From Chloroflexota bacterium (GTDB taxonomy: Bacteria; Chloroflexota; Anaerolineae; Anaerolineales; Anaerolineaceae): a stretch of DNA of 64,000 nucleotides. Shown piece after piece: positions 3,189 through 45,732 of this stretch. Where the stretch lies: contig JBFMBX010000003.1 in NCBI GenBank assembly GCA_040754815.1, forward strand, positions 346,329 to 410,328, given 5' to 3'. A program made the position numbers and the translations under genes. Position 1 is the stretch's first letter. The number at the start of each line of letters is the position of its first letter. The notes beneath the pieces were generated by a model, which made no database searches, was not told the origin of the DNA, and saw nothing but the letters and a program-made list of their open reading frames with translations.

Positions 3189-3207
3189 ATCCTGAATAAA
3201 ACAAAAT

Positions 3208-3246
3208 CCCCCTCCGCCATTTTCCACGGCGGAGGGGGTCTTTTTT
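3208..3246. terminator. Intrinsic terminator between convergent genes, probably bidirectional
   Basis: 11-bp perfect stem ccccctccgcc / ggcggaggggg with 9-nt loop, followed by tctttttt and preceded by an A-run. Confidence 0.85.
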
Positions 3247-3265
3247 ATTGTAGAACAGAATCGGT

Positions 3266-4357
3266 TTATGGTTCGGGCTGCTGCTGAGTGATGCAGTGGA
3301 TATTGCCACCTCCCAGCAATATTTCGCGTGCAGGGACGGGGACAATTTGCCGTTCCGGCATCAGTTCGGCCAGTTTTTGCAGAGCCGGCTGATCATGGGG
3401 GTCGTCAAAAACCGGCACAATCGCCGCACCGTTGGCCATGTAAAAGTTGATGTAAGAGCCGGCTAAACGGTCGCCTTCCTCTCGAGGGAGTGTGCCCTCG
3501 ACGGCATCCACCCCTTCGCTTTCCTCACGGGTGATGTAAATTGGCCCGGGCTGATGGATTTTGTGCACTTCCAGTCGGCGTCCGCGCGCGTCGGTCATGT
3601 GCATCAGCCGTTCGTAAGCATCGGCGGAGATTTCATATTGTGGATCACTCTTGTCGTCGGTCCATGTGAGAGCAATCACACCGGGGCGGATGAAACAAGC
3701 CAGATTGTCCACATGACCGCTGGTTTCATCGTTGTACACACCTTTGCCCAGCCAGAGGATTTTCTCGACATTCAGGTATTCCATTAAGAAATTTTCAATC
3801 TCCGATTTGGAAAGTTGCGGGTTGCGGTTGGGGTTGAGCAGGCACTCTTCGGTAGTGAGCAGCGTACCCTGACCATCCACATGGATGGAGCCGCCTTCCA
3901 GTACCAGTGGGGCTTTATAACGGTCAACCCATTCAATTTCGGCCACCTTGCGGGCGACTAAATCATCCAGATCCCATGGGAAGTACAGGCCACCATCCAG
4001 ACCTCCCCAGGCGTTAAAATCCCAGTCCACAGCGCGGACAACCTCACCATTGGTGACAAAGGTCGGTCCGCAGTCGCGCATCCACGAATCGTTATATGAA
4101 AGTTCGACCACGCGGATGTGAGCAGGCAGCATGTTGCGGGCATTCTGAAATTGACCGGCAGAGACGCCCATGGTTACTCTTTCAAAACGGGCTATGACTG
4201 TTGCAACGGCGGCAAAGGCTTTTTGAGCCGGTTTTGCGCCTAATCGCCAGTTGTCCGGTCTTTCCGGCCAAAGCATCCAGCAACCGGTGTGAGGTTCAAA
4301 TTCGGCCGGCATGTGAAAGCCGTCTTTTCGGGGAGTACTATTAATTAGCGATGACAT
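3266..4357 (-). CDS. aguA: Agmatine deiminase
   Basis: [55 protein letters not shown], and [13 protein letters not shown] with the catalytic Cys. Confidence 0.95.
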
Positions 4358-4381
4358 AGAAAATCCCTCACAAGGAATAGA

Positions 4382-5764
4382 TTACCGTTTGATCAGGAAT
4401 TCACCAATGATCAGGGTTACAGCAACACCGACAAGCACCGGAATTGCATAACCCCAATCTACCGGCTCACCCGGTACCCAAATAAAGAAAACGATAGCCT
4501 GCAGGATAAACATAACACAGACGATGGTCATCAATACAGCGGTAAGGTGATTGCCCGGTACGCGGTAGGGGCGGGGGCGGTCGGCATCGGTACGGCGCAA
4601 TTTCAGGAAAGCCGGGAAGAGAGCCAGGTATGGCATAAGAAATACAATAGAAGAGAAGGCAAATAACGACCAGAACAAATCTTCTGCCGTGGTGGCCATG
4701 AGGCCGTAAATGATTAAAACCGCACTGGAAACGATACCCGTGAGGATATATGCGCCGACCGGCGTTTTATTTACGGGATGGAGTTGACCAAAGAAAGCCG
4801 GTAGTTCGCCTTCGTTGGCGGCTTCGGCAGCAGTTCGATTGGCGCCCATTGTCCAGGTGACCATGTTGGTCAGGAAGGTGTAGAGACCACCAATGCCGAG
4901 GATAGTCACAATGGCGCCGCCAATTCCGCTTTCTCCAAACAGAATGCGCAGCGTGTCAATGACCCCAGAAACCAGACCCAGTTCCTCAGCGGGTAAAGCC
5001 ATCAACATGCCGATGGTGCCCATCAGATAGAAGAACGCAATCAATATGCCAGCAGTAATAATTGCCCGGGGAATATCGCGTTGCGGGTTTTGCATTTCCT
5101 CCCCAGCACCAGACATTAACTCAAAGCCCATGAAGTTATAAACAATCACCGGCAAGAAGTACAAACCGGCGTCCCAGCGGGGCAAGATGTTACGGAAGGA
5201 AAGGTCATTGGCAACCCCATGTTGAGACGCATAAATGAAAGCGCCAACACCGATGACCAGCATGATGAAAACTTTGATCAATGCGCCGATATTAGGTACC
5301 CATTTACCAATATCAAGGGCAACAATTCCGATGATCACCGTCACCCACGTCATCAAGACACCGATTGCAATTTGACCCCAAAGGCTGAGGTCTGGAATGA
5401 ACAACTGGGCGAACATACCGGCAAAGAGAACATAAACGGATGGCATCCACAAAGCAACATTAATCCAGTAAAGCCAGGTAGTGCGGGCTGCCCAACGTTC
5501 ACCGAATGCGTTGCGTACCCAAATGTATAATCCACCCTGTTCGGGGTAGGTTGTGCCCAACTCGGCGGTGATCAGACCGTAAGGAATGAAAAACAGGACC
5601 AGAGTGATGATCCACCATGAAATTGAAGATGGACCAATTGCCGCCGAAGGTGCCAAGGTATCTATCACAAGAATGGCGGCTACAGTGAAAAGGGTCATAT
5701 CAACGGCACGAAAGGCTTTTTTGAAACCATTACTTTTTTTTGTAGGGGCAATAGCGGTATCCAT
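4382..5764 (-). CDS. APC-family permease, likely agmatine/putrescine transporter (AguD position)
   Basis: About 12 hydrophobic segments, AELGTTYPEQGGLYIW, GFELMSGAGEEM and C-terminal RPYRVP; lies between ptcA and aguA. Confidence 0.85.
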   Translation of the reverse strand: MDTAIAPTKKSNGFKKAFRAVDMTLFTVAAILVIDTLAPSAAIGPSSISWWIITLVLFFIPYGLITAELGTTYPEQGGLYIWVRNAFGERWAARTTWLYWINVALWMPSVYVLFAGMFAQLFIPDLSLWGQIAIGVLMTWVTVIIGIVALDIGKWVPNIGALIKVFIMLVIGVGAFIYASQHGVANDLSFRNILPRWDAGLYFLPVIVYNFMGFELMSGAGEEMQNPQRDIPRAIITAGILIAFFYLMGTIGMLMALPAEELGLVSGVIDTLRILFGESGIGGAIVTILGIGGLYTFLTNMVTWTMGANRTAAEAANEGELPAFFGQLHPVNKTPVGAYILTGIVSSAVLIIYGLMATTAEDLFWSLFAFSSIVFLMPYLALFPAFLKLRRTDADRPRPYRVPGNHLTAVLMTIVCVMFILQAIVFFIWVPGEPVDWGYAIPVLVGVAVTLIIGEFLIKR

Positions 5765-5804
5765 GAGGAAATCTCCTTGAGTATGAAAGAAAGAAAAAAT
5801 TGGG

Positions 5805-5836
5805 CTCGGCAGGGATTAAGAATAATCCCTGCCGAG
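5805..5836 (-). terminator. Intercistronic hairpin between ptcA and permease (partial terminator or mRNA stabiliser)
   Basis: 14-bp perfect stem ctcggcagggatta / taatccctgccgag with 4-nt loop; U-rich run follows on the minus strand. Confidence 0.65.
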
Positions 5837-5848
5837 AAAAGGACGGTA

Positions 5849-6856
5849 TTAGCGGTTGAGGAAGTTTTCAATTTTACCGCGATGAAAGGCGGCCAGTTCG
5901 GCTGAAGGGCGTTTCAGGCGCGGGTAAATCAACCAGACCAGAATACCTTTTTCGGTGTGCAGGCGGTTTTCAGCCTGGTCGAAGATAATGGATTGAGCAG
6001 AGTCCATCACTTCGTCGGTGACCTCTACACCGCGTGAAGCGGGCAGGCAATGCATGAATTTACAATGGGCGGGTGCTTTTGCCATCAGTTCTTTATTGAC
6101 CTGATATTTCGGCATGAAAGCAGCCCGTCGTTCGGGAATCTGATCTTCTTGACCGACCCACCACCATAAATCGGTGTAGATAAAATCGGCATTTCGCACT
6201 GCTTCGATTGGATCTTCGGTAATGTTCAACGTTCCACCGGAAATTTTATTATTTTCCTCAGCCCATTTAATCCATTCGGTCGGTGCTTGATATTTCTTAG
6301 GGGCAGCATGAGTAAAATTCATCCCGAGTCGGGTGCAAATTAACATCAGGGATGAAAGAACATTGGTGGCATCGCCGATGAAGGTCACGTTGAAATCCTC
6401 CAATTTCTTACCGGCGGGGGCGTGTTCGATCATGGTCAGCACATCACATACCACCTGAGTGGGATGATTGTAGTCGGTCAGGCCGTTGATGACCGGTACG
6501 GTGGCATGTTTTGCCAGACCGGTGATGGTTTCATGCTTTAGGGTTCGAGCCATGATTGCATCACACATGCGAGAGAGCACCTGGGCGGTATCGCCGAGTG
6601 ACTCACGCACGCCGAGGTGAATTTCTCCCGGTTTGAGGTAGAGGGCATGTCCCCCCAGTTCGGTCATGGCGACTTCGAAAGAGACACGGGTGCGAGTGGA
6701 GGGTTCTTCGAAGATCATTGCCAGGGTGGCATCCTGTAACAATTTGGGTGTGCATCCCTGTTTATCGGCGGCTTTGATTAAACGGGTAAGTTCGATAAGT
6801 TCCAGGAGTTCCTCTTTGGTGAAATCCTGCGTATCAATAAAGTGTTTTAGGGTCAT
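5849..6856 (-). CDS. ptcA: Putrescine carbamoyltransferase
   Basis: STRTRVSF, HPTQ and HCLP carbamoyltransferase motifs; no ornithine-type SMG loop; C-terminal helical extension; agmatine deiminase context. Confidence 0.85.
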   Translation of the reverse strand: MTLKHFIDTQDFTKEELLELIELTRLIKAADKQGCTPKLLQDATLAMIFEEPSTRTRVSFEVAMTELGGHALYLKPGEIHLGVRESLGDTAQVLSRMCDAIMARTLKHETITGLAKHATVPVINGLTDYNHPTQVVCDVLTMIEHAPAGKKLEDFNVTFIGDATNVLSSLMLICTRLGMNFTHAAPKKYQAPTEWIKWAEENNKISGGTLNITEDPIEAVRNADFIYTDLWWWVGQEDQIPERRAAFMPKYQVNKELMAKAPAHCKFMHCLPASRGVEVTDEVMDSAQSIIFDQAENRLHTEKGILVWLIYPRLKRPSAELAAFHRGKIENFLNR

Positions 6857-7386: not shown

Positions 7387-7608
7387 GAGATATTCCGAAA
7401 CGGAAATATAAATTACCGAATTGGCAACATAATTATAGCAAAAATTTGTCTTAATTTCAATACCCATCCCTGTGATTAAGCACAATATCATAAGTTTTTG
7501 TGACACTTGTAAAATAACAAGGCGGCAGAAATTATCTATTTACATAATAGACCGGTGTTCCGACATGCCAATGGTTGTGTGTTACAATTTTTTTTACTTT
7601 TTACACTT

Positions 7609-9360
7609 ATGAATACTGAATTTACCCTTCAAAATTTATCCTCAACCGACCGCCGTGGACCGGTGCGGTGGATTATTTCACACCTTAAATCTCAGTGGTG
7701 GCTGGTTATTATTGCTGTGGCTGGCGCGATAGGCAATGCTGGCCTGGCTGGTGTGGTGCCGGTCATGATCGGGCAGGCGGTGAATCTGGTGAGTGGTGGT
7801 GCCTTTGACCGAAACCGCCTGTTGCAAATCGTTTTCATCATTGTCATATCCCAAACGGTTCGTGGTGTGTTGCAGTTTGCCCGTAATTTTGGATTTGAGG
7901 TGATTGCCCAACGGATTGAACGCAAAATACGAGAGGAGTTATATGTATCTCTTCTGGGAAAAAGCATGACTTTTCATAATCTGCAACCGGTTGGTGATAC
8001 GATGGCTCGCGCAACCAACGATGTGCGGGAGGTTAATTTTTTATTTTCACCGGGGGTTAATCTGGTGGTTGGTTCATTAATCTTTATCTTCGTGCCAATC
8101 TTTGTAGCCCCTCGTTATCATCCTTCGTTAGTGCTGGTTCCGCTCTTATTTGTAATTATCTATTTTGTTTTGTTGAAATTTTACTTGAAGGAACTCGAGC
8201 CGGTCACCGATGAAGTGCGCCACTCGTTTGGCATTTTGAACACCCGCTTAAACGAAGCATTGGATGGCATAGAAGTTGTTAAGGGCGCCGCGCAAGAAGA
8301 GGGGGAGGTGGTGCTTTTCGGAAAAAATGTTGATCGTTATCGAAAGGCTGCTGTTCGCCAGGGTGATATTGAAGCGCGGTTCTTACCGGCTTTGTTGCTG
8401 GCTCTGGCTATGGCGGGTGGTCTTCTCCATGCGCTGAGCCTTTTTCAACGCGGATTGATCGACACCGGCGATGTTGTTGCCTATTTTGGGCTTCTGGTCA
8501 TGCTCTCGTTTCCAACATTCGTCTCCATATTTGCCTATTCTCGTATCTCGTTGGGACTGGCTGGGGCGCGCCGGATTCTTGAGTTGATGAATCGTGAAAA
8601 CAACCTTGACCAAAACGAAAAAGGGTATCAGGGGAAAATGCAGGGGGCGGTGGAGTTTAAGGATGTTTGTTTTGCGTATCAAAATGATGAACCAGTTTTG
8701 AAAAATATATCTTTTCGGGTAGAACCGGGGCAAACTGTTGCCATTGTTGGACAGACCGGCAGCGGCAAGACCACACTTGTCAAATTGATTAATCGCATCT
8801 ACGATGTGAATGGTGGTGAAGTGCGGGTAGATAATGTGAATGTACGAGATTGGAATCTTGAGGCACTGCGTCGGCAGATTTCCATTATTGAACAGGACAT
8901 TTTTTTGTTTTCACAATCCATTGCAGACAATATTGCCTTTGGTAAACCTGATGCGAGCCGAGAGGAAATTATAGAAGCCGCAGTTGCGGCTCAGGCTGAT
9001 GAATTCATACGTTCTTTTGAAAAAGGATATGACACAATCATTGGCGAGCGAGGTGTTACTCTTTCAGGCGGGCAACAGCAGCGTTTAGCATTAGCGCGTG
9101 CCTTTTTAACCCAACCAAGTATTCTGATACTGGATGATTCAACCAGCGCAATCGATTCGGCAACCGAGGACAGGATTCAAAGGGCAATTTATGCTGCCGC
9201 CCGAGGAAGGACAACCTTTATCATTACCCACCGCCTTTCACAAATTCGCTGGGCAGATGTGATTTTAGTTTTACGCAAAGGTGAACTGGTTGCTTCTGGT
9301 AGTCACGACGAACTGATGAAGAGCAGTGAAGCCTATCGTGATATCTTTCAGGAATTGTGA
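7609..9360 (+). CDS. ABC exporter fused permease/ATPase, heterodimer subunit A
   Basis: 6-TM domain, Walker A GQTGSGKT, signature LSGGQQQR, non-canonical Walker B LDDSTSAID; ATG 7609 preferred. Confidence 0.9.
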   Translation: MNTEFTLQNLSSTDRRGPVRWIISHLKSQWWLVIIAVAGAIGNAGLAGVVPVMIGQAVNLVSGGAFDRNRLLQIVFIIVISQTVRGVLQFARNFGFEVIAQRIERKIREELYVSLLGKSMTFHNLQPVGDTMARATNDVREVNFLFSPGVNLVVGSLIFIFVPIFVAPRYHPSLVLVPLLFVIIYFVLLKFYLKELEPVTDEVRHSFGILNTRLNEALDGIEVVKGAAQEEGEVVLFGKNVDRYRKAAVRQGDIEARFLPALLLALAMAGGLLHALSLFQRGLIDTGDVVAYFGLLVMLSFPTFVSIFAYSRISLGLAGARRILELMNRENNLDQNEKGYQGKMQGAVEFKDVCFAYQNDEPVLKNISFRVEPGQTVAIVGQTGSGKTTLVKLINRIYDVNGGEVRVDNVNVRDWNLEALRRQISIIEQDIFLFSQSIADNIAFGKPDASREEIIEAAVAAQADEFIRSFEKGYDTIIGERGVTLSGGQQQRLALARAFLTQPSILILDDSTSAIDSATEDRIQRAIYAAARGRTTFIITHRLSQIRWADVILVLRKGELVASGSHDELMKSSEAYRDIFQEL

Positions 9361-9383
9361 TTGCAGTCCAGGAGTGTTTTCAT

Positions 9384-11225
9384 ATGGGATTTTTTGCCGG
9401 TTTGGATGCCGAAAAATATGACCGAAAATACAAAGACCGGGAGTTGATCCGGCGAATTTTGTTGTATTTTCGTCCCCATTATTCACGTTTGATAATGGTG
9501 GGAATACTGGTTTTAGTCGTTTCTGGGTCGGGAGCTTTACTTCCTATTCTGGTTTCAAGAGGGATTGATTTTCTCAAAGATGAATTGACACCGGTTAATG
9601 TATTACTTATTCCCTTTGCAGTTATGCTGACCGGCGTGATTGCATGGCTGGCAAACTGGCAGGCACGGCGTCTGGTTGTTCGGTCGGTAGCCGATGTGGT
9701 TGCCCGCCTTGCCAATGAGGCATTTGCCTCAGCAGCGGAACACGACCTGTCTTTTTATGATCAGTTTTCTTCGGGAAAAATTGCATCTCGGATTACCAGT
9801 GATACGCAGGACTTTGGTCAACTGGTAATTTTGATAACGGATCTTGTTTCGCAGGTAGTTGAATCGGTGATTCTTGCCATTGTTTTGATTAACATTGAAC
9901 CGCGTTTATCTTTGACCTTATTTGTGATTGTACCGGTCATTAGTTTGCTGGCCGCCAGTTTTCGCAGTCTAGCCCGTAAAGTAACACGCGCCGGCATGAG
10001 GGCTATGGCGAATGTCAATCAAACCATTAAAGAAACCGTTTCGGGAATTGCAGTAGCAAAAAATTTCCGCCAGGAAAAGCGGATATTTGAGATTTTCGAC
10101 CAGTCCAACCGTTTATCCTATCAAGTCAATGTTCGGCGTGGTCTGGTGTTATCAATGGTGTTTCCGATTATGAATACAGTCGGTGGTTGGATGACGTCTT
10201 TACTTGTGTATTTGGGTGGTATAAGCGCTGTTCAAGGAGCAGTGACGGTTGGGGCATGGTATCTCTTTTTATTGAGTCTGGATCGTTTCATGTTCCCGGT
10301 CATGAACCTATCCTCTTTCTGGACTCAAGTTCAAAATGGTCTATCGGCTGCGGAGCGTGTTTTTGCTCTGATTGATGCCGATCCCAGTGTGGTACAGACG
10401 GGAAGCATCAAAGCTCCGCAATTGAAGGGCCGGATTGAGTTCAGACATGTGGATTTTCATTATAAAGATAATGAAGCGGTTTTAGAGGATTTCAATTTGC
10501 ATATTCAACCAGGCGAGTCGGTTGCACTGGTTGGTCATACCGGGGCGGGAAAGTCATCGATTGTTAAATTAATCGCCCGTTTTTATGAATTTCAACGGGG
10601 TGAAATTTTAATTGATGGTATGGATATTCGCAGTTTCGATTTGGGGAGTTATCGCTGTCAATTGGGAATTGTTTCTCAAGTACCATTCCTTTTTTCCGGA
10701 ACGATTCTTGAAAATATTCAATATTCCTGCAAAGGGGCCAGTGAGAAAGAGATTGAGAGATTGGCATATCAGATTGGTAACGGCGAATGGCTTGAATCGC
10801 TGCCGGATGGATTAATGACCCAGGTGGGGGAGCGCGGTAGCAGACTTTCGATGGGACAGCGTCAGCTGGTTTCTTTGATGAGGGTGCTGGTTCAGAAACC
10901 GGCTATATTTATGCTGGACGAAGCGACGGCGAGTATTGATCCATTTACCGAGCGGCAAATTCAACAAGCATTGGGGATGGTGCTTGCGCAATCAACCAGC
11001 ATTTTAATTGCCCACCGACTCTCAACGGTCAAAGCGGCGGATCGAATCATCGTACTCGATCATGGAAAAATTATCGAAGAGGGCAATCACCAACAATTAA
11101 TGGAGAAGGGAGGTCATTACGCAGAATTATATAATACCTACTTCCGTCATCAGTCGCTGTCTTATATTGAACAATCTGGAATGATGAAAGAACAAGCAAA
11201 GATTGAGATTACGAGGTTGCAATGA
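9384..11225 (+). CDS. ABC exporter fused permease/ATPase, heterodimer subunit B
   Basis: Walker A GHTGAGKS, degenerate signature LSMGQRQL, canonical LDEATASID; AGGAG RBS before ATG 9384. Confidence 0.9.
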   Translation: MGFFAGLDAEKYDRKYKDRELIRRILLYFRPHYSRLIMVGILVLVVSGSGALLPILVSRGIDFLKDELTPVNVLLIPFAVMLTGVIAWLANWQARRLVVRSVADVVARLANEAFASAAEHDLSFYDQFSSGKIASRITSDTQDFGQLVILITDLVSQVVESVILAIVLINIEPRLSLTLFVIVPVISLLAASFRSLARKVTRAGMRAMANVNQTIKETVSGIAVAKNFRQEKRIFEIFDQSNRLSYQVNVRRGLVLSMVFPIMNTVGGWMTSLLVYLGGISAVQGAVTVGAWYLFLLSLDRFMFPVMNLSSFWTQVQNGLSAAERVFALIDADPSVVQTGSIKAPQLKGRIEFRHVDFHYKDNEAVLEDFNLHIQPGESVALVGHTGAGKSSIVKLIARFYEFQRGEILIDGMDIRSFDLGSYRCQLGIVSQVPFLFSGTILENIQYSCKGASEKEIERLAYQIGNGEWLESLPDGLMTQVGERGSRLSMGQRQLVSLMRVLVQKPAIFMLDEATASIDPFTERQIQQALGMVLAQSTSILIAHRLSTVKAADRIIVLDHGKIIEEGNHQQLMEKGGHYAELYNTYFRHQSLSYIEQSGMMKEQAKIEITRLQ

Positions 11226-11762: not shown

Positions 11763-12890
11763 TCATAAGCCGCTGAAACTTTCTATATCCTTCCAGCCGG
11801 TAGTCACATATGTGGTCAGTTCGCTGACACTCAGGTCTTTAATTCCTAATTTATCTAACGTTCTGCCCCGCCGCCAGTAATCGGTACGATGAATAATGCA
11901 TGCCAGACGAATTACGCTGTTGATTCCATTTACCGAAACGCCGTAACGTTCCCCGAGAGAGGCTATCGGTACCAGACTCATGGGTACATCTTCAAAAATA
12001 TAGCGATGGTTAAGGGTGGCAGGTGCTTTGATGCCGTAATATCCGGTCTGATTGTGGATGCGCTCATGCAGCGTTTCACCCGTTACATTGTATGCTAATT
12101 CAAGCCATTCAAGGGCGGTGCGCGCACGAATACCCAATGCAGAAGCAACCGTTACCCTTTCGCGATCAAGAATTTCAAGGACTCGGGCAACTGAAGGTGT
12201 AACCCCGTCAATGTAAAATTCAAAATCTCCGTGTGTGGCTTCAATCCAACCGGCATTGAGAATGGTTAAGGCGGGATGAAAAATTGCACCCATATTGTTT
12301 AAACCGGTATGCAGTACATTCACCCCGTCAATATATTGGGGATATGCAACTCGAATCTGTTCCAGCACTAAAGGGGTCTTTACGGCTGGCAGGGCTGCTA
12401 ATGGCACCGCTTCTTTTATGCGGAAGATGCGTGCCTGGGCCGGACCATCCGCTCGACTGGCGTAAATGAAGGTTTCTGCTTCGGCGACGTTTACATCCAA
12501 ATTACAACCGCTGCGCCGGAGAATAACATCGAACTCAATGGCACCAAGGGTTCTACCGGGATGAAGGATGATGGTTTGACCTTCTCTTAAATGGCAGGCC
12601 ATCTTTTGGGCTATTTCGGCGTGAGCAGATGAAGGCAATACCACCATAATCACCTGTGCATCTTTAATGGCTGCGGCAATATCATCGGTAACCAGTTTTA
12701 TTCTGCCAAAGCCGCGTGGACCGCCTTCATAACTTTCCAAATCAATGCCGCCTCTTTTTGCTATTATTTCAATATGGGCATAGGTTCGATTATACAAAGT
12801 TACATCAAACCCCATCAAAGCCAGGTGGGCAGCCATTGCTTTTCCACCATTCCCCGCCCCAATCACTGCAAAGCGTGAAATCTCAGTCAT
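11763..12890 (-). CDS. NAD/NADP opine (octopine/nopaline) dehydrogenase family protein
   Basis: Rossmann VIGAGNGG, LHPGRTLG, NMGAIFHP and RYIFEDVPMSLVP, typical of the opine dehydrogenase C-terminal domain. Confidence 0.85.
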   Translation of the reverse strand: MTEISRFAVIGAGNGGKAMAAHLALMGFDVTLYNRTYAHIEIIAKRGGIDLESYEGGPRGFGRIKLVTDDIAAAIKDAQVIMVVLPSSAHAEIAQKMACHLREGQTIILHPGRTLGAIEFDVILRRSGCNLDVNVAEAETFIYASRADGPAQARIFRIKEAVPLAALPAVKTPLVLEQIRVAYPQYIDGVNVLHTGLNNMGAIFHPALTILNAGWIEATHGDFEFYIDGVTPSVARVLEILDRERVTVASALGIRARTALEWLELAYNVTGETLHERIHNQTGYYGIKAPATLNHRYIFEDVPMSLVPIASLGERYGVSVNGINSVIRLACIIHRTDYWRRGRTLDKLGIKDLSVSELTTYVTTGWKDIESFSGL

Positions 12891-14536
12891 TTTCTTTCAA
12901 TCCCTCCCGATGTGAAAATTTTTTCCAGACGCTGAAGTTCAGAAATGGGTTTCCCTGCATCATCAACAGCCAAACAAGCGCCCCCGATAATGCGGGTTTT
13001 GATTTGACCTTTACCAAAGCGATTATTTTTTAATTGGGGGGCATCCAGGATTCCGGATGTGACAGCCAATGCCAATCCTTCCGGATCGGTGAAGGCATCC
13101 CTTTCAGGATATTTGGACAATTTTTGTATGGCACTTAATGTTACTTTTGCTTCCGAAATTAATTGTTCTTTGCGCTTAATGATGGCTGGATCATAAAGCA
13201 TGACGGGTTGACCGGCCATGGCATTTTCAATAGCCCGACGAGCCATTCTTGCAGCTTCGATCACATCCTCGGCGGTGGCGGCATGATCTGCTTCGGTATG
13301 ACCAACAATATGAACAATATCTGGTTTAAGAGCCATTTGCAAATAAATGCTGGCGGCTAAATGAGCACGGGCAGCTGATTGTTCCAGCGGATAAGAAAGC
13401 AGGCCGGTTCTGGTTTGTAACCAGATACGGAAATCGGGACCGGCGAGAGGTTTAATCATCTCGATGATCGCCAGCATTTTGGCGAGATCCATGGCATCGG
13501 AAGTGCCGGCTGGGCTGTTAAACATCAATTGGGCAATATAATCCTTTACGCCAAATGCCTTCGCGTTATAAGCGGAAAGAAAGGCTGAGACTACAAAAAT
13601 TACATCGGGGGCATCGCGCATTCCCCAATGATGCGGCTCATTCAACTCCACGGGAACATTCCTCTCGCCGTACCATGCCATGACCTTCTGATGTTCGCGG
13701 ATTGATCCTGCCAGATCCCAAGGTCCTCGTCCATCCATTTGATTAAACCAGAACAATGGAATGGCGCACCAGGCATTATTGATGGTATCCATATACAATT
13801 CGGCAAGGCGGATAAAATCATCCGTGCCGGAGTATGTTCTCAAAAGCGGGTAATTTCCGGTTCGACTGGCTTCGTAAAGCAATCGGTAATCATCTGCAGA
13901 TCGAACCGGCACACCACCCGCGCCTTTACGCCGCGGGTTCTGTCTTTCGGGATGAAAAAAGTTCTCTTGAGCATCCTGGTCAATTCCTAATGAAATCACA
14001 TCAATTACGCGTGCTTCAGCAATTTCCTGTATGCCTTTCTTTGTTTCTTCGAGATCCGGTAAGCCGAAATGATGACGTAAAAGGGGATAGGGGGCTTTCC
14101 ATAAGCGTCGCTCAACCATAGTCTGTGGATATGAGGAGGCATCAGCAGAATATTCTGAATCTCCGCGCAGGTAGGTCAGGGTTTCTTCAGTCAATTCAGA
14201 ACCATCAAAGACCCTTTCAAAGAAGCCTAATTTTCGAGCTCGATCTGCCACGGGTGGTGTTCCTGCAAACGCAAAGCGAACCCCCTTCGATTTCAATTCA
14301 TCGGCGGCTTCGGCAAACTCACCCAACAACCTTTCACCGGATTCAGCCGTCAAACGGTAGGACACCCCAACCAAATCTGCTTTTTCATCAATCGCGGCCT
14401 GTATAAAATCTTTGACAGACACTGCCGGGCCAAGAAAAACCGTCCGCCAGCCTGCCATTTCTGCCAGTTTCAAAAAATTACTGACGCCGGCGACGTGAAC
14501 ACATTCGCCCAATGCACCGGCAACAACCGTTTTCAT
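12887..14536 (-). CDS. Cobalamin-binding protein: N-terminal glutamate-mutase-S-like B12 domain fused to a putative barrel domain; function unknown
   Basis: KTVVAGALGECVHVAG...FIQAAIDEKADLVGVSYRL resembles a base-off/His-on B12 domain; stop overlaps the opine dehydrogenase start. Confidence 0.75.
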   Translation of the reverse strand: MKTVVAGALGECVHVAGVSNFLKLAEMAGWRTVFLGPAVSVKDFIQAAIDEKADLVGVSYRLTAESGERLLGEFAEAADELKSKGVRFAFAGTPPVADRARKLGFFERVFDGSELTEETLTYLRGDSEYSADASSYPQTMVERRLWKAPYPLLRHHFGLPDLEETKKGIQEIAEARVIDVISLGIDQDAQENFFHPERQNPRRKGAGGVPVRSADDYRLLYEASRTGNYPLLRTYSGTDDFIRLAELYMDTINNAWCAIPLFWFNQMDGRGPWDLAGSIREHQKVMAWYGERNVPVELNEPHHWGMRDAPDVIFVVSAFLSAYNAKAFGVKDYIAQLMFNSPAGTSDAMDLAKMLAIIEMIKPLAGPDFRIWLQTRTGLLSYPLEQSAARAHLAASIYLQMALKPDIVHIVGHTEADHAATAEDVIEAARMARRAIENAMAGQPVMLYDPAIIKRKEQLISEAKVTLSAIQKLSKYPERDAFTDPEGLALAVTSGILDAPQLKNNRFGKGQIKTRIIGGACLAVDDAGKPISELQRLEKIFTSGGIERK

Positions 14537-14760
14537 AAGAACCTCCGTTTTTTTTTACACAAAACACGTTCGAAAAGCTTTCATCTCATCCACCATTAAA
14601 GACCTACGAATGTGCAGGTGGGTGATGGCGAGTTTTTAATAACGCCATAATGCAGTTTCTGAAAATTCATTATAACGGAAAAATCTTTAAATTTATGCAA
14701 CCAAACTGCAAATTGATCATCTAATACCATGGCTAAACTTATTATCTGGAGCAGTGAACC

Positions 14761-15018
14761 ATGAGTGGAACAACTATGAATTATCCCAGAGTGATCATCT
14801 TTACTACACCGACCTGTACCTATTGTAATATGACAAAAAAATACCTGCGTGAAAAGGGTGTTCGGTTCAAGGAGGTGGATGTCAGTCGCGATTCGGCAGC
14901 TGCACGAGACATGGTGAGAAGATCGGGACAAATGGGGGTGCCGGTGCTGGATATTGGAGGAAAAATCGTGGTCGGATTTGACCGATCTAAAATTAATCAA
15001 TATTTAGGCATTAAATAA
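14761..15018 (+). CDS. Glutaredoxin-like (NrdH/YruB type) redoxin
   Basis: FTTPTCTYC CxxC, SGQMGVP cis-Pro motif, IVVGFDR. Confidence 0.9.
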   Translation: MSGTTMNYPRVIIFTTPTCTYCNMTKKYLREKGVRFKEVDVSRDSAAARDMVRRSGQMGVPVLDIGGKIVVGFDRSKINQYLGIK

Positions 15019-15032
15019 TTGTGGAGGTAAAT

Positions 15033-15308
15033 ATGTCAGAAATCAAAATTCAACCGATGGGTGCCCGCATTCTCGTTAAACCGCTGGAGCAAGAATCCAA
15101 AACTGCCACAGGTTTGTATATTCCAGAAACTGCCAAAGAGAAACCTCAAACCGGTATTGTTATGGCGGTTGGAGATGAGGAGGAGATCAAGCTCAGAGTC
15201 AATGATAAAGTGTTATTTGCAAAGTACAGCGGAACTGAAATAAAAATTGGCAATGAGGATTATCTCATTATGGAATGTGGGGATGTTTTAGCTAAGGTTT
15301 TGGATTAA
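15033..15308 (+). CDS. groES: Co-chaperonin GroES
   Basis: IQPMGARILVK, GLYIPETAKEKPQTGIV, KVLFAKYSGTEIK; GGAGG RBS before ATG 15033. Confidence 0.95.
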   Translation: MSEIKIQPMGARILVKPLEQESKTATGLYIPETAKEKPQTGIVMAVGDEEEIKLRVNDKVLFAKYSGTEIKIGNEDYLIMECGDVLAKVLD

Positions 15309-15335
15309 ATTTTTGATTCTTGTTTAAATTGAATT

Positions 15336-15362
15336 GGGCTGTCTGAAATAATCAGGCAGCCC
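15336..15362 (+). terminator. Hairpin after grx-groES
   Basis: gggctgtctga / tcaggcagccc stem (one G-U pair) with aataa loop; weak U tail. Confidence 0.5.
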
Positions 15363-15365
15363 ATT

Positions 15366-16052
15366 ATGAGTTTATGGCCTATAATTAAGGTCATGTTCGA
15401 GGGTCTGAGAATTCGTCCTTATCGAGCGGAAGATCGGGAATCGTTATTAAAAATCGCGGCAGATACAGCGTTTTTTGGTGAAGCCGTCGAAAAGTTTATT
15501 GAAGATCGGCGGATTTTTCTGGATGCTTTCTACCTTTATTACACCGACTATGAACCGCAACATAGCTGGGTTGCGGTATGTAATGAGCAGGTAGTAGGAT
15601 TTTTGACGGGTTGTTATGACACCAGATTACAAAGAGAATACACCGGTAAAGTGCTGGAAAAACGAGCACTGAAAAAAGTATTGACTGGTAAATATCGGTT
15701 GGGCAAAAAATTCTTACGATATTTATTCAGATATTGGATGAGCAAGATGATTTTTGAAAAAACGGCAGTGGACTTGACCCAATATCCTGCCCATTTCCAT
15801 ATCAACGTTGAAAGTAAATGGCGGGGTCAGGGGATTGGAAGAAATTTAATCGAGACGTATTTGAAACATCTGGAAAAGGATGGAATTTGCGGTGTTCATT
15901 TACAGACGACGAGTTTCAATAAGGTTGCGGTAGGTTTATACGAAAAAATGGGGTTTAAACTTTTATCCTCTGTACCTTCCTATCTCTGGCAGTCGCTGGT
16001 AAATGAGCCGATTTATGAGCTGACTTATGGAAAGATTTTGCTTCTGAGGTAA
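15366..16052 (+). CDS. GNAT-family N-acetyltransferase
   Basis: AHFHINVESKWRGQGIG acetyl-CoA motif and AVGLYEKMGF; true start may be ATG 15393. Confidence 0.85.
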   Translation: MSLWPIIKVMFEGLRIRPYRAEDRESLLKIAADTAFFGEAVEKFIEDRRIFLDAFYLYYTDYEPQHSWVAVCNEQVVGFLTGCYDTRLQREYTGKVLEKRALKKVLTGKYRLGKKFLRYLFRYWMSKMIFEKTAVDLTQYPAHFHINVESKWRGQGIGRNLIETYLKHLEKDGICGVHLQTTSFNKVAVGLYEKMGFKLLSSVPSYLWQSLVNEPIYELTYGKILLLR

Positions 16053-16212: not shown

Positions 16213-19149
16213 ATGACATTATTCAATCGTTCAGCATCAAGAAGTATCCGCAATCAGATGCGTCTGATTCTATTGTTGATATTTCTTGCTTTTTTAGTCA
16301 TTGATGGCTTGGGTATCTGGTTATTTGTTTATCGCCTCGAACGGAACGGTTGGGATCAAAGACAAAATGAAGCGACAATAAATGCAAGCAATTCCATCAA
16401 TCAGAGTCTTGAACGAGTAAAGTCGGCGCTTTACTGGTTGGGAAACTTTGGAGATCCTGCCAGTTTAGAGGATCCGGTAGTTGTCCGCACTCTCGAAAGC
16501 CAGTTGCCGGATTTGTTGGAGTTTGTCTATCTTGATCGGAACGGTGAGGTTTTAACCAATGTCGTTTACGATAAAGGAGAAAGCCTGGTAGATAACGAAC
16601 AATTGAGGCATTCCCCCTGGTTTTTACACGCCCGCAATGGTGATTCTTTTGTAGGGGGGGTGAACTTTACTGGGGATAATAGACCTTACATAATTTTTTC
16701 AGCGCCGGTAATTAGAAATGGGAATATTATTGCCGTACGATTGAACGCTCAATTTCTACGAGAAGTGGTTGATCGGTTTGAGTTTGGAAATATGGGGGTT
16801 GTATATATTGTGGATACGGATGGTTCGATTATTATCCATTCCGATCCCAATGCGAGTTTAAATCAGGTCAATTTAAGAAATCGCCCTGAAATCAGAGAGA
16901 TTATCCAATCGGATAATTACAGATGGGAAGGAGAATATACTAATTTTCAAGATAAATATGTTTCTGGAGTCAGCATTGCCATCCCTGCAACCAGTTGGAT
17001 ATTGATTACAGAAATTCCATTGGATGAAATTTATCAAAATACGCGGCTGGCGGCCACGTTACTAATAACCGGTTTGTTAATTTTGGGATTGTTGTTAATA
17101 CCAGTTTATTATCTATTATTTGAAAGGATGTTATTGAGACCATTAAATGTATTAAGTGAAGGTTTTCAAAGGATTGGAGATGGTGATTTGGAATTTCGAG
17201 TTTCTTCATTTCCTGTAATTGAATGGAATGATTTGGGATCTTCACTCAACCAGATGGCTTCTGAATTGCAGAAAAGAGATACTACTTTGAGAATTCAATA
17301 TCAAAAAATAGAACAGGAAATAGAAGAAAGGCAAAAAGCAGAAGAGGCGCTGCGCATTCTTAACCTGGAACTCGAACAGCGTGTGGAAGAACGTACCCGA
17401 CAATTATCTGCAATAAATGAGAACTTGAAAAAAGAAATTTTAGAACGAGAGAGATTAGAAAGGTTGTATCAAAACTTGATCGAGAAAATGCCGGCGGTTT
17501 TCTATGTGCTTGATATCAATAAAATTGCTTTTTCCTTTGTAAGCCCCCAAATATTTGAATTAACTGGATGGACACAGAAAGACTGGATTGAAAACGATAA
17601 TCTTCGTCTTTATGCAATTCATCCTGAGGATGTTCAGGAATTTACAACATCCTTTAGGCGTGCTATTGAACATGGAGAGCCTTATCATCTGGAATATCGA
17701 ATGATCCATCGAAATGGAGATGTGATTTGGGTGGAAGATTATGCATCTCCATTGAGTGATGGAGAAAAAGAGATTGAATCGTATCAGGGCGTGATTTTAG
17801 ATATTACCATTCGCAAAAAGGCTGAAGCGGAACTGGTTTATAACGCATATCACGACGTGCTTACCGGTTTGAAAAACCGGGCATACCTGGTCGAAAGGCT
17901 TAATCAAATATTATCCCGCCGACATCACTCCGATGATCAGCCATTATTTAGTCTTTTGTTTATGGATCTGGATCGTTTCAAAATTATCAATGATAGTCTG
18001 GGACATCGGACTGGGGATCAGTTATTAATTGAAGCGGCAAGTCGGTTGCAAAAGAATTTATTCCCAACCAGTACTCTGGCTCGTTTTGGGGGAGATGAGT
18101 TTGTATTACTGGTTGAAGGTGAGGATCCAAGGCGGGATGCTATACAATTGGCCGATCAAATTTTGATTGATTTTCAATCACCATTTCTGCTGGATGGTCG
18201 TTCATTATTTACTACAATCAGTATGGGAGTGGTCATTGATAATGGAGAATATCAGCAGCCGGATGAAGTTTTAAGAGACGCGGATATTGCCATGTACCGG
18301 GCAAAGGCAAGAGGTAGAGCGTGTTATGAGGTGTTTTCAAAACCGTTGCTGGATCAGGTGATTAGCCGGCATCAAATTGAAGCGCTATTACGAGATGCCC
18401 TTAATAAAAATGAGTTTAATTTATATTACCAGCCGATTATTTCTCTGCGAGACAATCGGGTGGTTGGTTTTGAGGCTCTAATCCGTTGGGTTACCCCGCA
18501 ACTGGGTCTGATTCAACCATCTGAATTTATTACCCTGGCGGAAGAAACCGGGTTAATTCATCAAATAGACCGCTGGGTTATGTATGAGGCATGCAGACAG
18601 GTGCAGGAGTGGTATCAGAGAGGATTATCTGCTCACCCATTCACGGTTAGTGTAAACTTATCTGGGAGTTTGCTGCAGCAAGGCAACGTGGTGGAAATGA
18701 TCAGAGAAATTTTGAAAGATACCGGTTTGCCTTCCAAGGCTTTGAAAATTGAGTTAACGGAGAGTGTGTTTTTAGAGACCAGCGGTTTGATAAATCAACA
18801 ACTTCAGGAAATTCGGGATCTAGGCATCCATTTGCAAATTGATGATTTTGGCACGGGTTATTCTTCCCTCTCGTATTTGCAGCGGTTTCCAATTACCGCC
18901 ATTAAAATTGATCGAAGTTTTATCAGCCGGATTAATTCAAAATCCTCTGGCACGGAAATAGTTCAGGCAATTATTGTGCTAGCCAAAGAACTTGGATTAG
19001 AAACAATTGCCGAAGGGGTGGAAACCATTGATCAGCTTCACTGGTTGAAGCAAGCCGGCTGTGATTATGGACAGGGTTATTTACTTTACAGACCTATGGA
19101 TGCCGAATCGACAGAAAAATTATTAAGCAATCTCGACAATGAGAATTGA
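16213..19149 (+). CDS. Membrane sensor with Cache-like, HAMP, PAS/PAC, GGDEF and EAL domains
   Basis: Two TM helices flank an extracellular domain; HPED...[14 protein letters not shown]; ARFGGDEF; GFEALIRW; [14 protein letters not shown]. Confidence 0.92.
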
Positions 19150-19828: not shown

Positions 19829-20845
19829 TTGAGTACAAATGAAAATTTTAAAGAACCCGTTTGGAAATTTCGCGGTTATGAATTGAGACCATCTGAATTT
19901 ACTACTGCGATGGTTCATTATTATCGTGCAGAAATTCAAAGAAGTAATGTATGGAGAACAAGACTCGACTCCACAACTAATTGGGCGGTTGTAACAACAG
20001 GAGCAACCCTCTCTTTTGTTCTTTCCAGTCCGGATAATCATTTTGTGATTATTTTGTTAACCACCATCCTGATTGCCGTATTTCTCTGGATGGAAGCCCG
20101 CCGTTACCGATATTATGAATTGTGGAGTTACAGGGCTCGATTGCTCGAAACCGATTTTTTCGCGGCAATGCTTGTACCCCCATTCGCACCTCATGCTGAA
20201 TGGGCAGAAAGTCTGGCTCAATCCCTTCTCCAGCCTGATTTTCCAATAACAATGTGGGAGGCAATTGGAAGACGGCTACGGCGAAATTACTTTTGGATTT
20301 TTATCGTCCTGCTTGTATCGTGGATTATTAAAATTGTATTGCATCCATATCCTTTGACCAGCTGGTCTGAATTTATCCAGAGATCGACTCTTGCTGGTAT
20401 TCCGGGAGAAGTGATTATTGCTGGAGGCGTATTATTTTATTTTGGGTTAGTTGTTTTAGCAATTTGGACAGCCAGATTTCATCAGGCCAGCGGCGAGGTC
20501 TTGCCAAAATATGATGTATTCAGTCCAGCAGAAAAGACGGGGACACGCAGGCCGGAATTTGCGAAAAGGAAGCAGCTGCTGGTCTGGATTGTGACCGATC
20601 AGCAAGATTTGATTTCAAAAGCCATTATGGAAATCATGCATCGCGGGGTTACTTCGATAAGCGGCACGGGGATGTATACACAAAAAAGTCACTCGGTTTT
20701 GATGGTGGCTTTAACTGTTACTGAGATTGCGGAATTGAAACGAATTGTTCAAAATATTGACCCCAAGGCATTTATCGTGGTAAACCCTGCTCAGGGTGTT
20801 TTTGGAGGTGGTTTCCAGCCACTTTCCGTTGAGGATGAAAATTAG
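19829..20845 (+). CDS. DUF2270-like membrane protein with C-terminal DUF2179/YitT-type (PII-like) domain
   Basis: HYYRAE...WRTRLDSTTNWAVV (DUF2270-like); C-terminal HRGVTSISGTGMYT...IDPKAFI...V.GGGF (DUF2179-like); TTG start with AGGAGG RBS. Confidence 0.7.
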   Translation: MSTNENFKEPVWKFRGYELRPSEFTTAMVHYYRAEIQRSNVWRTRLDSTTNWAVVTTGATLSFVLSSPDNHFVIILLTTILIAVFLWMEARRYRYYELWSYRARLLETDFFAAMLVPPFAPHAEWAESLAQSLLQPDFPITMWEAIGRRLRRNYFWIFIVLLVSWIIKIVLHPYPLTSWSEFIQRSTLAGIPGEVIIAGGVLFYFGLVVLAIWTARFHQASGEVLPKYDVFSPAEKTGTRRPEFAKRKQLLVWIVTDQQDLISKAIMEIMHRGVTSISGTGMYTQKSHSVLMVALTVTEIAELKRIVQNIDPKAFIVVNPAQGVFGGGFQPLSVEDEN

Positions 20846-42667: not shown

Positions 42668-42716
42668 TTTAGCCTCCAATATTTGGAAATTTGAAATAGA
42701 TGAAATGAGGTTTGGT

Positions 42717-45724: not shown

Positions 45725-45732
45725 GGAAAACC

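Follow-up and report, generated by a model that had tools for sequence, protein, structure and literature searches.

The gene pair and its features

We analysed a 64,000-nucleotide stretch of DNA from a Chloroflexota bacterium of the Anaerolineaceae (assembly GCA_040754815.1, contig JBFMBX010000003.1, positions 346,329 to 410,328 of the forward strand), called the window below, and within it two minus-strand genes at 11763-14536 that encode a cobalamin (B12)-binding protein and an opine dehydrogenase. An initial annotation of this locus had described a 549-residue B12 protein whose stop codon overlaps the start of the dehydrogenase gene, and both genes and the overlap are indeed present. The features that the following analysis refers to are listed here by their coordinates in the window; GlmS and GlmE are the two subunits of glutamate mutase, and CENDH is the N-(1-D-carboxyethyl)-L-norvaline dehydrogenase of Arthrobacter sp. 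1C (PDB 1BG6).

12887..14536, minus strand: gene of a single-chain, GlmS-GlmE-like cobalamin protein, a putative adenosylcobalamin (AdoCbl) mutase, 549 residues (open reading frame list)
14542..14546, minus strand: Shine-Dalgarno sequence GGAGG, 5 nt upstream of the mutase ATG (sequence)
14162..14536, minus strand: N-terminal B12-binding Rossmann domain, residues 1-125 (Pfam PF02310 and GlmS matches)
14486..14506, minus strand: His loop E11-C12-V13-H14-V15-A16-G17, a variant of DxHxxG with Cys for Asp (HMMER alignment to GlmS)
12890..14125, minus strand: GlmE-like (beta/alpha)8 barrel with C-terminal subdomain, residues 138-549 (Foldseek, hhalign, DSSP of the model)
13292..13294, minus strand: codon of E415, aligned with GlmE E330 (hhalign and an independent GlmE hidden Markov model [HMM]; conserved in 40/41)
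12903..12908, minus strand: Shine-Dalgarno sequence GGGAGG of the dehydrogenase, within the 3' end of the mutase gene (sequence)
12887..12890, minus strand: ATGA overlap of mutase stop and dehydrogenase start (sequence)
12887-12889, minus strand: mutase stop codon TGA (sequence)
11763..12890, minus strand: gene of an opine dehydrogenase family protein, CENDH-like, 375 residues (open reading frame; Pfam Octopine_DH; 1BG6)
12783..12791, minus strand: codons of dehydrogenase N34-R35-T36, where Rossmann strand beta2 ends (128 mutase-linked dehydrogenases aligned)
12276..12278, minus strand: codon of dehydrogenase H205, aligned with the catalytic His202 of CENDH (HMMER to 1BG6; conserved in at least 95% of 128 sequences)

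The pair stands isolated in the window, with a gene for a DoxX-like membrane protein on one side and genes for a glutaredoxin-like protein and GroES on the other. A promoter and terminator scan of the region gave no signals above the shuffled expectation. The region was found in DNA runs only, from groundwater and hot-spring metagenomes, and in no transcript runs.

The B12 protein and glutamate mutase

The N-terminal domain is recognizable from sequence. Pfam B12-binding (PF02310) matched residues 3-118 of the protein at 40.6 bits, against a curated cut-off of 32.1; the top PDB sequence match of the domain was GlmS (1be1_A, E 3.2e-6), and Foldseek aligned it with GlmS 1i9c_A at a template modelling (TM) score of 0.75 and 27% identity. 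The domain that follows turned out to be less accessible. Residues ~130-549 had no match in Pfam or NCBIfam, neither the NCBIfam methylaspartate mutase E equivalog nor Pfam PF06368 matched the window protein, and phmmer and a 41-sequence profile run against the PDB returned nothing but B12 domains and, spuriously, repeats of de novo TIM barrels; PDB sequence searches found no solved structure of the family's barrel. Its relationship was found through fold search and profile-profile comparison and not through sequence search. An AlphaFold2 model built on 55 homologues (predicted local distance difference test 84.5, predicted TM score 0.85) has a beta/alpha barrel following the Rossmann domain, and the best match of this barrel in the PDB was GlmE (6h9e_B/1cb7_B; Foldseek E 8.5e-14, 440 columns, TM 0.64, 16% identity). 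Next came the barrels of ornithine 4,5-aminomutase (OraE, E 6e-11) and lysine 5,6-aminomutase (KamD, E 1.7e-9), and then those of acyl-CoA mutases.

Profile comparisons gave the same picture, if only weakly. A profile of 41 divergent family members aligned by hhalign with the GlmE family over 372 co-linear columns (E 4.5e-4, probability 33%), and a GlmE HMM placed on family members set the P-H-E330-A segment over Y-S-E-A and aligned the subdomain after the barrel as well. Where motifs could be aligned, they are GlmE-like: I-D-x-x-x-[RQ]-x-N, G-T-x-D and H/S-E-A. With 27.5 bits against a cut-off of 26.6, the distant relative P0127 is recognized by Pfam Met_asp_mut_E, and three others (P0161, P0166, and P0168) are fused to domains of the MutL/GlmL family (MutL, PF13941), a member of which is encoded in glutamate mutase operons between the genes of the two subunits. 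Because of these fold matches to GlmE and GlmS, the profile alignments, the Met_asp_mut_E match, and the MutL fusions, the 549-residue protein is a natural single-chain fusion in S-then-E order that falls into the glutamate mutase branch of the B12 enzymes, and the ~420-residue domain, which the initial annotation had given as roughly 400 residues without assigning it, is by fold a GlmE-type barrel.

Glutamate mutase itself (EC 5.4.99.1; Clostridium cochlearium, 1CB7, 1I9C, 6H9E) shares with the window protein the Rossmann B12 domain with its His ligand, the (beta/alpha)8 barrel and the C-terminal subdomain, one difference being that it consists of two subunits, whereas the window protein is one chain. 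An N-terminal B12 domain, which had been contrasted with the C-terminal one of MCM and ornithine aminomutase, is what the window protein has, but this placement is not unprecedented in a single-chain mutase: in the fused isobutyryl-CoA mutase IcmF (4XC6), also an AdoCbl enzyme, the B12 domain lies at residues 46-134 of 1113. IcmF differs in having an acyl-CoA mutase barrel, to which the similarity is much weaker, a G-protein chaperone domain, and CoA thioester substrates.

We then examined the loop that carries the presumed cobalt ligand. The HMMER alignment to GlmS 1be1_A sets C12-V13-H14-V15-A16-G17 over D-C-H-A-V-G, so the initial reading of the motif as C-V-H-V-A-G with its Asp replaced was correct. 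The Asp-His pair of DxHxxG is incomplete in the window protein, in which Glu11 precedes Cys12. Since E11, C12, V13, H14, A16, and G17 are invariant among 55 homologues of 71-84% identity, the loop is a conserved feature and not a chance or decayed site. Among the 41 divergent representatives, position 12 is Cys in 21 and Asp in 16, and 37 of the 38 ungapped sequences have both H14 and G17. The two residues at position 12 separate two clades. Clade A (540-650 residues), which holds the window protein, the Asgard proteins, and the MutL fusions, has the loop [D/E/N/Q]-C-V/I-H-x-x-G; its sister clade B (600-636 residues, 36-38% identical) has the canonical D-[P/A]-H-T-x-G. On these alignments, the Asp-to-Cys change is a fixed trait of clade A, the family having canonical DxHxxG members as well, in clade B. 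Within clade A, the Cys is invariant also in the MutL-fused and Asgard members, and the residue before it is usually D, E, N, or Q. The canonical motif of the sister clade, together with the retention of His14 and Gly17, argues that cobalamin binding through the His is ancestral and retained, with H14 as the presumed lower axial ligand of cobalt.

Two further features of the chain bear on its class. Aminomutases carry a pyridoxal phosphate (PLP)-binding lysine on the Rossmann domain, presumably 11 residues after the ligand His; residue 25, which is at that distance, is Ala and invariant in the alignment of close homologues (A1), in agreement with the earlier remark that no PLP-lysine motif is visible. 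The sole nearly invariant lysine of the barrel, K353, is Arg in 3 of the 41 sequences. The helical B12-binding_2 cap (PF02607) that precedes the Rossmann domain in corrinoid methyltransferase proteins and CarH-type photoreceptors was not matched in the mutase, whose Rossmann domain starts at residue 2. A B12-dependent radical SAM enzyme was also considered and is ruled out, the protein having only three cysteines (C12, C257, and C521), no CxxxCxxC motif, and no PF04055 match.

Next, we compared the active sites. In GlmE, an "arginine claw" of R66, R100, and R149 binds both carboxylates of glutamate, E171 hydrogen-bonds its amine, and Y177 contacts the acrylate fragment (PMC10947579); E330 hydrogen-bonds the ribose of 5'-deoxyadenosyl, and its mutation slows hydrogen abstraction (PMC11290419). 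The residue mapping below comes from the profile alignment of low confidence (33%) and is provisional. Conservation refers to the 41 divergent representatives.

GlmE R66: H156 in the window protein, conserved in 39/41
GlmE R100: Q190, conserved in 39/41
GlmE R149: Y235, conserved in 41/41
GlmE E171 loop: W-F-N-[Q/E]-x-D268-G-R270-G (W-F-N-Q-M-D268-G-R270-G in the window protein), D268 in 41/41 and R270 in 40/41
GlmE Y177/Y181 segment: deleted in the family

Active sites of TIM barrels lie on or just after the barrel strands, and according to DSSP of the model the mapped residues, E415 included, are on or just after strands beta1, 2, 3, 4, and 8. Conserved polar residues occupy such positions on most strands (R154/H156, Q190, R233/Y235, D268/R270, E297/N299, Q336, R376, and H409/E415). 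R154, R233, E297, N299, D311, Q336, and R376 are invariant or nearly so and lie on the remaining strands and the loops after them; among the 41 representatives, R154, D268, E297, and D311 are strictly invariant, and R270 and R376 nearly. As far as the alignments tell, the pocket matches that of GlmE in polarity and in its wealth of arginines, though it is built differently. The adenosyl-radical machinery is probably kept and would act on a different, probably polycarboxylate, substrate. Because the arginine claw is replaced by H156, Q190, and Y235, even though Glu330 is retained as E415, the window protein is probably not a glutamate mutase. The initial annotation had named a barrel matching a characterised enzyme of known substrate as evidence that would count against its proposal; such a match exists at the level of fold, at 16% identity, but does not extend to the residues by which GlmE binds glutamate.

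The dehydrogenase partner and the distribution of the pair

The family of the B12 protein is large. A word-indexed search gave more than 7600 matches to the mutase, of which the best 120 aligned over the full length at 71-84% identity. The only names given to them are "cobalamin B12-binding domain-containing protein", "methylmalonyl-CoA mutase cobalamin-binding subunit", and the erroneous "methionine synthase". When the barrel was searched on its own and exhaustively, 569 clusters at 50% identity came up, nearly all full-length members having an N-terminal extension of 130-230 residues, and in a collection with one genome per species, mutase relatives are encoded on at least 572 stretches. The family is represented in Chloroflexota, Promethearchaeota (Asgard archaea), Clostridiales, and Rikenellaceae; tblastn against a plasmid collection gave no match. 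Full-text searches of the openly accessible literature found no characterised member, no paper on the family, and none on the pairing of a B12 mutase with an opine dehydrogenase, so that the designation of the B12 protein as uncharacterised stands.

The downstream gene had been called an opine dehydrogenase, and it encodes a true member of that family, to which the octopine and nopaline dehydrogenases and CENDH belong. Pfam Octopine_DH (PF02317) matches its product at E 2.6e-47, the Rossmann GxGxxG motif is found as G-A-G-N-G-G at residues 11-16, and CENDH (1BG6) aligns with residues 2-358 at E 8.4e-78 and ~40% identity. The catalytic His of CENDH is retained, as is the R-Y-x-x-E-D-(V/I)-P segment (R296-Y297-I-F-E300-D301), which is at least 95% conserved in the 128 mutase-linked dehydrogenases. 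Apart from its linkage to a B12 protein, the enzyme differs from CENDH at two sites. At the end of strand beta2, the NADH-dependent CENDH has D-I-D, whereas the NAD(H)-type acidic residue is missing from the window enzyme; N-R-[S/T] is found there in 71/71 Chloroflexota (clade A) sequences, in almost every clade B sequence, and in those from Asgard and other lineages. This signature bears on the likeness to CENDH in cofactor, not on family membership. By the usual rule for Rossmann domains an N-R-[S/T]-type signature goes with NADP(H), and because of it we infer that the dehydrogenase would use NADP(H) and hence work in the reductive, biosynthetic direction. The second site is Arg113 (in P-G-R-T), at least 95% conserved in the mutase-linked enzymes and Ala in CENDH, which may serve an extra carboxylate of the substrate. 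A tight subfamily of mutase-linked dehydrogenases was looked for and is not seen in overall identity (24-39%); N-R-[S/T] and Arg113 are the only signatures that set these enzymes apart. Between the window and the Bellilinea genomes (L001-L005), the dehydrogenase is 93-96% identical, as against 78-84% for the mutase and 74-92% for flanking genes, and in this lineage it is unusually strongly constrained.

The initial annotation had treated the two genes as parts of one pathway and had named a lack of co-occurrence in other genomes as grounds against this; they do occur together across genomes. The 80-locus samples used here are the best-scoring loci and not random ones, the first drawn from the one-genome-per-species scan and the clade B sample from metagenomes. 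The best 80 loci of the former were all from Chloroflexota, and a dehydrogenase homologue was present in every one of them (80/80): directly downstream of the mutase in 74, with a gap below 135 nt; at 328 nt in 1; 2.3-4.6 kb downstream with inserted genes in 3; and immediately upstream in 2. Clustering of the open reading frames at these loci left the mutase (78 loci) and the dehydrogenase (74 loci) as the only conserved genes, with no third gene conserved in the 80 loci and the next neighbours reaching at most 16. In clade B, for which the open reading frame filter was complemented by a tblastn check, the dehydrogenase adjoins the mutase on the same strand in 63 of the 67 evaluable loci of 80, usually upstream and overlapping. 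Mutase and dehydrogenase genes likewise adjoin in an Asgard contig (L081), in Clostridiales contigs (L084-86), and in three further clade A lineages (L089, L171, and L172). The stop/start overlap is not general, the gaps being variable; the tight linkage is. A functional tie of the B12 protein to the opine dehydrogenase is supported by this distribution. At one of the clade B loci lacking a dehydrogenase (L111, 1943-3079), a gene for a class I/II aminotransferase lies directly upstream of the mutase, a single occurrence; this aminotransferase may functionally replace the dehydrogenase.

Two kinds of gene recur around the pair. A gene for an amide-forming ligase was found in the flanks of 21/80 Chloroflexota, 19/80 clade B, and 6/13 other loci. 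AsnB-like genes lie between mutase and dehydrogenase in L033 and L076 and beside the pair in the Asgard contig. In L172 (1174-3765), the mutase P0127 and a GshB/RimK-type ATP-grasp domain form one polypeptide, followed by a C26 (gamma-glutamyl-hydrolase-type) gene, and the order dehydrogenase, mutase, ATP-grasp, C26 peptidase/GATase occurs twice, in L172 and, with the ATP-grasp gene unfused, in L089 (8001-11407). The second kind comprises genes of glycan synthesis: glycosyltransferases, Bac_transf, two ATP-grasp genes, SDR, AKR, DegT, and FdtA around L082; Alg14/Alg13-like genes, a MurJ-like flippase, and cell-wall-binding proteins around L084-86; glycosyltransferases near the Asgard pair; and DegT with dTDP-glucose 4,6-dehydratase (RmlB) near the pair in clade B. 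Opine acids are known substituents of bacterial glycans: in Providencia alcalifaciens O35, Qui4N carries alanopine, and in P. rustigianii O14, GalA carries N-epsilon-(1-carboxyethyl)-lysine (PMC10609480). The likeness to these systems lies in N-(carboxyalkyl) amino acids that are made and amide-linked to sugars and, on our side, in the clade B and Asgard contexts with DegT, RmlB, ATP-grasp, glycosyltransferase, and flippase genes; the difference is that neither a B12 enzyme nor a branched (methylaspartate-type) opine is reported for those glycans, and the link is one of gene context only.

Two loci are unusual in other ways. In L033 (3403-5846, Thermoflexales), a D-glutamate cyclase-like gene (PF14336, E 1.4e-70) and the AsnB-like gene split the pair; the cyclase was seen once only and hints at D-glutamate-type chemistry. 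In L173 (163-4105), on a contig cut upstream, the family member P0137 has a C-terminal M15-like peptidase domain, and after this mutase-peptidase fusion come genes for both subunits, large and small, of an aconitase-family hydro-lyase. The arrangement recalls dicarboxylate pathways such as nicotinate fermentation, of which these subunits presumably recall the dimethylmaleate hydratase. The 2-methyleneglutarate mutase of that pathway (Eubacterium barkeri) would share with the window protein the class of carbon-skeleton mutases acting on dicarboxylates but differs in its B12 domain, which is C-terminal.

Around the pair in the window itself, two fused permease-ATPase ABC exporter genes with a 4-nt overlap (7555-11225, plus strand) converge on the dehydrogenase gene; similar exporters are near the pair in 16/80 loci, mostly of close relatives, and may only reflect shared gene order. 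Beyond them, three genes side by side (3266-6856, minus strand) look like a cluster of the agmatine deiminase pathway and encode a deiminase of the Porphyromonas type (PAD_porph, E 1.9e-127), an amino acid permease, and a carbamoyltransferase of the ornithine/putrescine type. Positions 2001-4000 have a G+C content of 55.7%, as against about 38-46% over most of the window, and this high-G+C region spans the 3' part of a gene for a 1053-residue beta-helix/DUF11 protein (27-3188) and the deiminase gene. On the other side of the pair, a YruB-type glutaredoxin-like gene and GroES (Cpn10) are followed by a GNAT acetyltransferase gene and not by GroEL (14761-16052, plus strand); the first two keep their position in the closest relatives (L001-L005) only. 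Then come genes for a 978-residue dCache-HAMP-PAS-GGDEF-EAL signalling protein (16213-19149, plus strand) and a DUF2270+DUF2179 membrane protein (19829-20845, plus strand); a DUF5698+DUF2179 protein neighbours the pair in 16/80 Chloroflexota loci. An array of ~36 kb (27390-63836, minus strand), co-directional and on the same strand as the pair, resembles a large polysaccharide biosynthesis cluster and includes the following genes:

27390-28982, minus strand: chain-length/kinase-like P-loop ATPase
33733-35208, minus strand: Wzy_C-type protein
41366-42730, minus strand: FAD/Trp-halogenase-like enzyme
44141-45736, minus strand: AMP-binding enzyme
49366-50613, minus strand: GT1
51576-53420, minus strand: AsnB-like amidotransferase, 27% identical to the AsnB-like genes linked to the pair elsewhere
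54168-55346, minus strand: GT2
61776-63836, minus strand: BNR-repeat protein

The proposed reaction and its rivals

We consider it probable that the B12 protein is an AdoCbl radical mutase that works together with the dehydrogenase. The fuller account, which we favour as a tentative one without calling it probable, is that the two genes make up a two-enzyme B12 module, in which a carbon-skeleton mutase and an opine synthase act on a glutamate-like polycarboxylate. The mutase would bind AdoCbl in the base-off/His-on form, and substrate binding would trigger homolysis of the Co-C bond, upon which the 5'-deoxyadenosyl radical would abstract a hydrogen atom. A 1,2 shift of the carbon skeleton, of the type that turns glutamate into 3-methylaspartate, would follow, and the hydrogen atom would then be returned. 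In GlmE, this shift proceeds by fragmentation to a glycyl radical and acrylate and their recombination.

The substrate would be not free L-glutamate but a related polycarboxylate, for which an N-(carboxyalkyl) amino acid (an opine-type iminodiacid) is our favoured candidate. The dehydrogenase would make the opine with NADPH from an amine or amino acid and a 2-oxo acid such as 2-oxoglutarate or pyruvate; with an amine and 2-oxoglutarate, the product would be an N-substituted glutamate, which the mutase would convert into an N-substituted 3-methylaspartate. The reverse order, with the mutase first and the condensation second, is equally compatible with the data. We arrive at an N-substituted, glutamate-like substrate because the partner enzyme belongs to a family that makes N-(carboxyalkyl) amino acids, because the glutamate claw is lost from a pocket that is richer in conserved Arg, because the dehydrogenase has gained an Arg, and because enzymes that handle glutamate turn up repeatedly in the neighbourhood. 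One of the possibilities raised in the initial annotation, the rearrangement of an N-carboxyalkyl amino acid, is a plausible candidate and the one we favour. The branched product would be taken over by amide-forming ligases of the AsnB-like or ATP-grasp type and attached to amines such as amino sugars; in several lineages, it would probably end on the amino sugars of cell-surface glycans.

Several observations weigh against this account. What it says on cobalamin binding, cofactor form, and substrate is prediction, the residue mapping onto GlmE is provisional, and the Asp of DxHxxG is missing from the clade of the window protein. Neither in the window nor in the Chloroflexota loci is a gene for a MutL-type reactivase or an adenosyltransferase found close to the pair, and no B12 riboswitch was found close to it in these loci or, by Rfam, anywhere in the window. 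The pairing has its gaps, as 4 clade B loci have no dehydrogenase and the MutL-fused clade has none nearby, and the dehydrogenases of different clades are no closer to each other (24-39% identical) than to CENDH. Linkage to ligase and glycan genes is confined to a minority of loci, with none adjoining in most Chloroflexota loci, the window included, where the polysaccharide cluster begins 13 kb from the pair.

Of the competing explanations, a fused, divergent but true glutamate mutase fares best, although we regard it as unlikely. It would convert L-glutamate to (2S,3S)-3-methylaspartate, which the dehydrogenase would use as its amine or deaminate oxidatively. The ranking of GlmE and GlmS as best fold matches, the Met_asp_mut_E match of P0127, and the glutamate-related neighbours (the D-glutamate cyclase-like gene in L033 and the GshB/RimK-type ATP-grasp and C26 genes in L089 and L172) would all fit such an enzyme. 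Yet none of the three claw arginines (0/3) is found at the aligned positions, the Y177/Y181 loop is absent, and at 16% identity to GlmE the window protein matches neither the methylaspartate mutase E model nor PF06368. The partner also differs, as glutamate mutase is associated with methylaspartase, whereas here the partner is an opine dehydrogenase: MutL/GlmL and methylaspartate ammonia-lyase are absent from the window and from the conserved neighbours of the 80 loci, and MutL occurs only in fused form in a distant clade.

Still less probable is a catabolic module, in which the dehydrogenase would oxidize an opine or secondary amine and the mutase would rearrange one of the resulting fragments, or the opine itself, for fermentation, in analogy to ornithine and lysine fermentation, where a mutase step precedes a dehydrogenase step. 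The hosts are anaerobic fermenters, the window has genes for an amino acid permease and ABC transporters not far from the pair, and aconitase-family hydratase subunits follow the mutase in L173. Against these stand the N-R-[S/T] signature, an NADP-type one that points to reductive, biosynthetic use, and the nature of the recurrent partners, which are ligases and glycan genes rather than lyases or CoA-transferases; no catabolic neighbour is conserved in the 80 loci.

The initial annotation had further proposed that the imine of an amine and a 2-oxo acid, the intermediate of opine dehydrogenases, could stand in for the PLP aldimine in a 1,2-amino shift, a proposal that found no specific support and that we judge very improbable. 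It would suit the tight coupling of the genes, which fits transfer of a labile intermediate, and the rank of the OraE and KamD barrels as second-best fold matches; a dehydrogenase also acts next in aminomutase pathways. But in the aminomutases (OraS/OraE, D-ornithine 4,5-, 3KP0; KamD/KamE, lysine 5,6-, 1XRS) the B12 domain is C-terminal or a separate subunit, A25 takes the place of the PLP-lysine in the window protein, the chemistry is without precedent, and a free imine would hydrolyse. Because GlmE outranks the aminomutase barrels, with the alignable motifs also GlmE-like, a carbon-skeleton shift is the better guess. Equally remote is a non-radical role of cobalamin (methyl transfer, light sensing, or regulation) beside a conventional non-B12 barrel enzyme, to which the missing Asp, the name "methionine synthase" given to some members, and the complex architectures in which B12 photoreceptor domains are known to occur (PMC10979010) might point, but against which stand the missing B12-binding_2 cap in a chain whose Rossmann domain begins at residue 2, a barrel homologous to that of AdoCbl enzymes with its adenosyl-binding Glu, the MutL fusions of relatives, and the canonical sister clade.

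Returning to the opine-linked carbon-skeleton mutase, what is known already is the scaffold and the probable radical chemistry, and what is new is that both parts form a single chain, that the His loop has its Cys variant, that the pocket is rebuilt, and that the obligate partner is an opine dehydrogenase. In its most far-reaching form, which we hold to be possible but with more doubt than confidence, the proposal amounts to an undescribed B12 reaction: an AdoCbl-dependent carbon-skeleton rearrangement of an opine (for example, of an N-substituted glutamyl to a 3-methylaspartyl arm) by an enzyme in obligate pairing with an NADPH-dependent opine synthase, the branched iminodiacid being ligated, in Chloroflexota, Firmicutes, Bacteroidota, and Asgard archaea, into the glycans of the cell envelope or into peptides. 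By the conserved Cys beside the cobalt-ligating His, the cofactor would then be tuned or protected in a novel manner.

By our estimate, the known isomerase reactions that depend on AdoCbl number only about a dozen, and each new one has been informative on how proteins control radicals. The family described here is large and old, being present in bacteria and Asgard archaea, and its scaffold, changed pocket, Cys, and near-obligatory dehydrogenase partner together lead to a short and concrete list of candidate substrates, for which cultured strains such as Bellilinea caldifistulae and Anaerolinea are sources of protein for direct testing. If the link to glycans is true, the pair would constitute a B12-dependent step of cell-surface decoration and a new B12 requirement in organisms that are abundant in anaerobic digesters and the subsurface.

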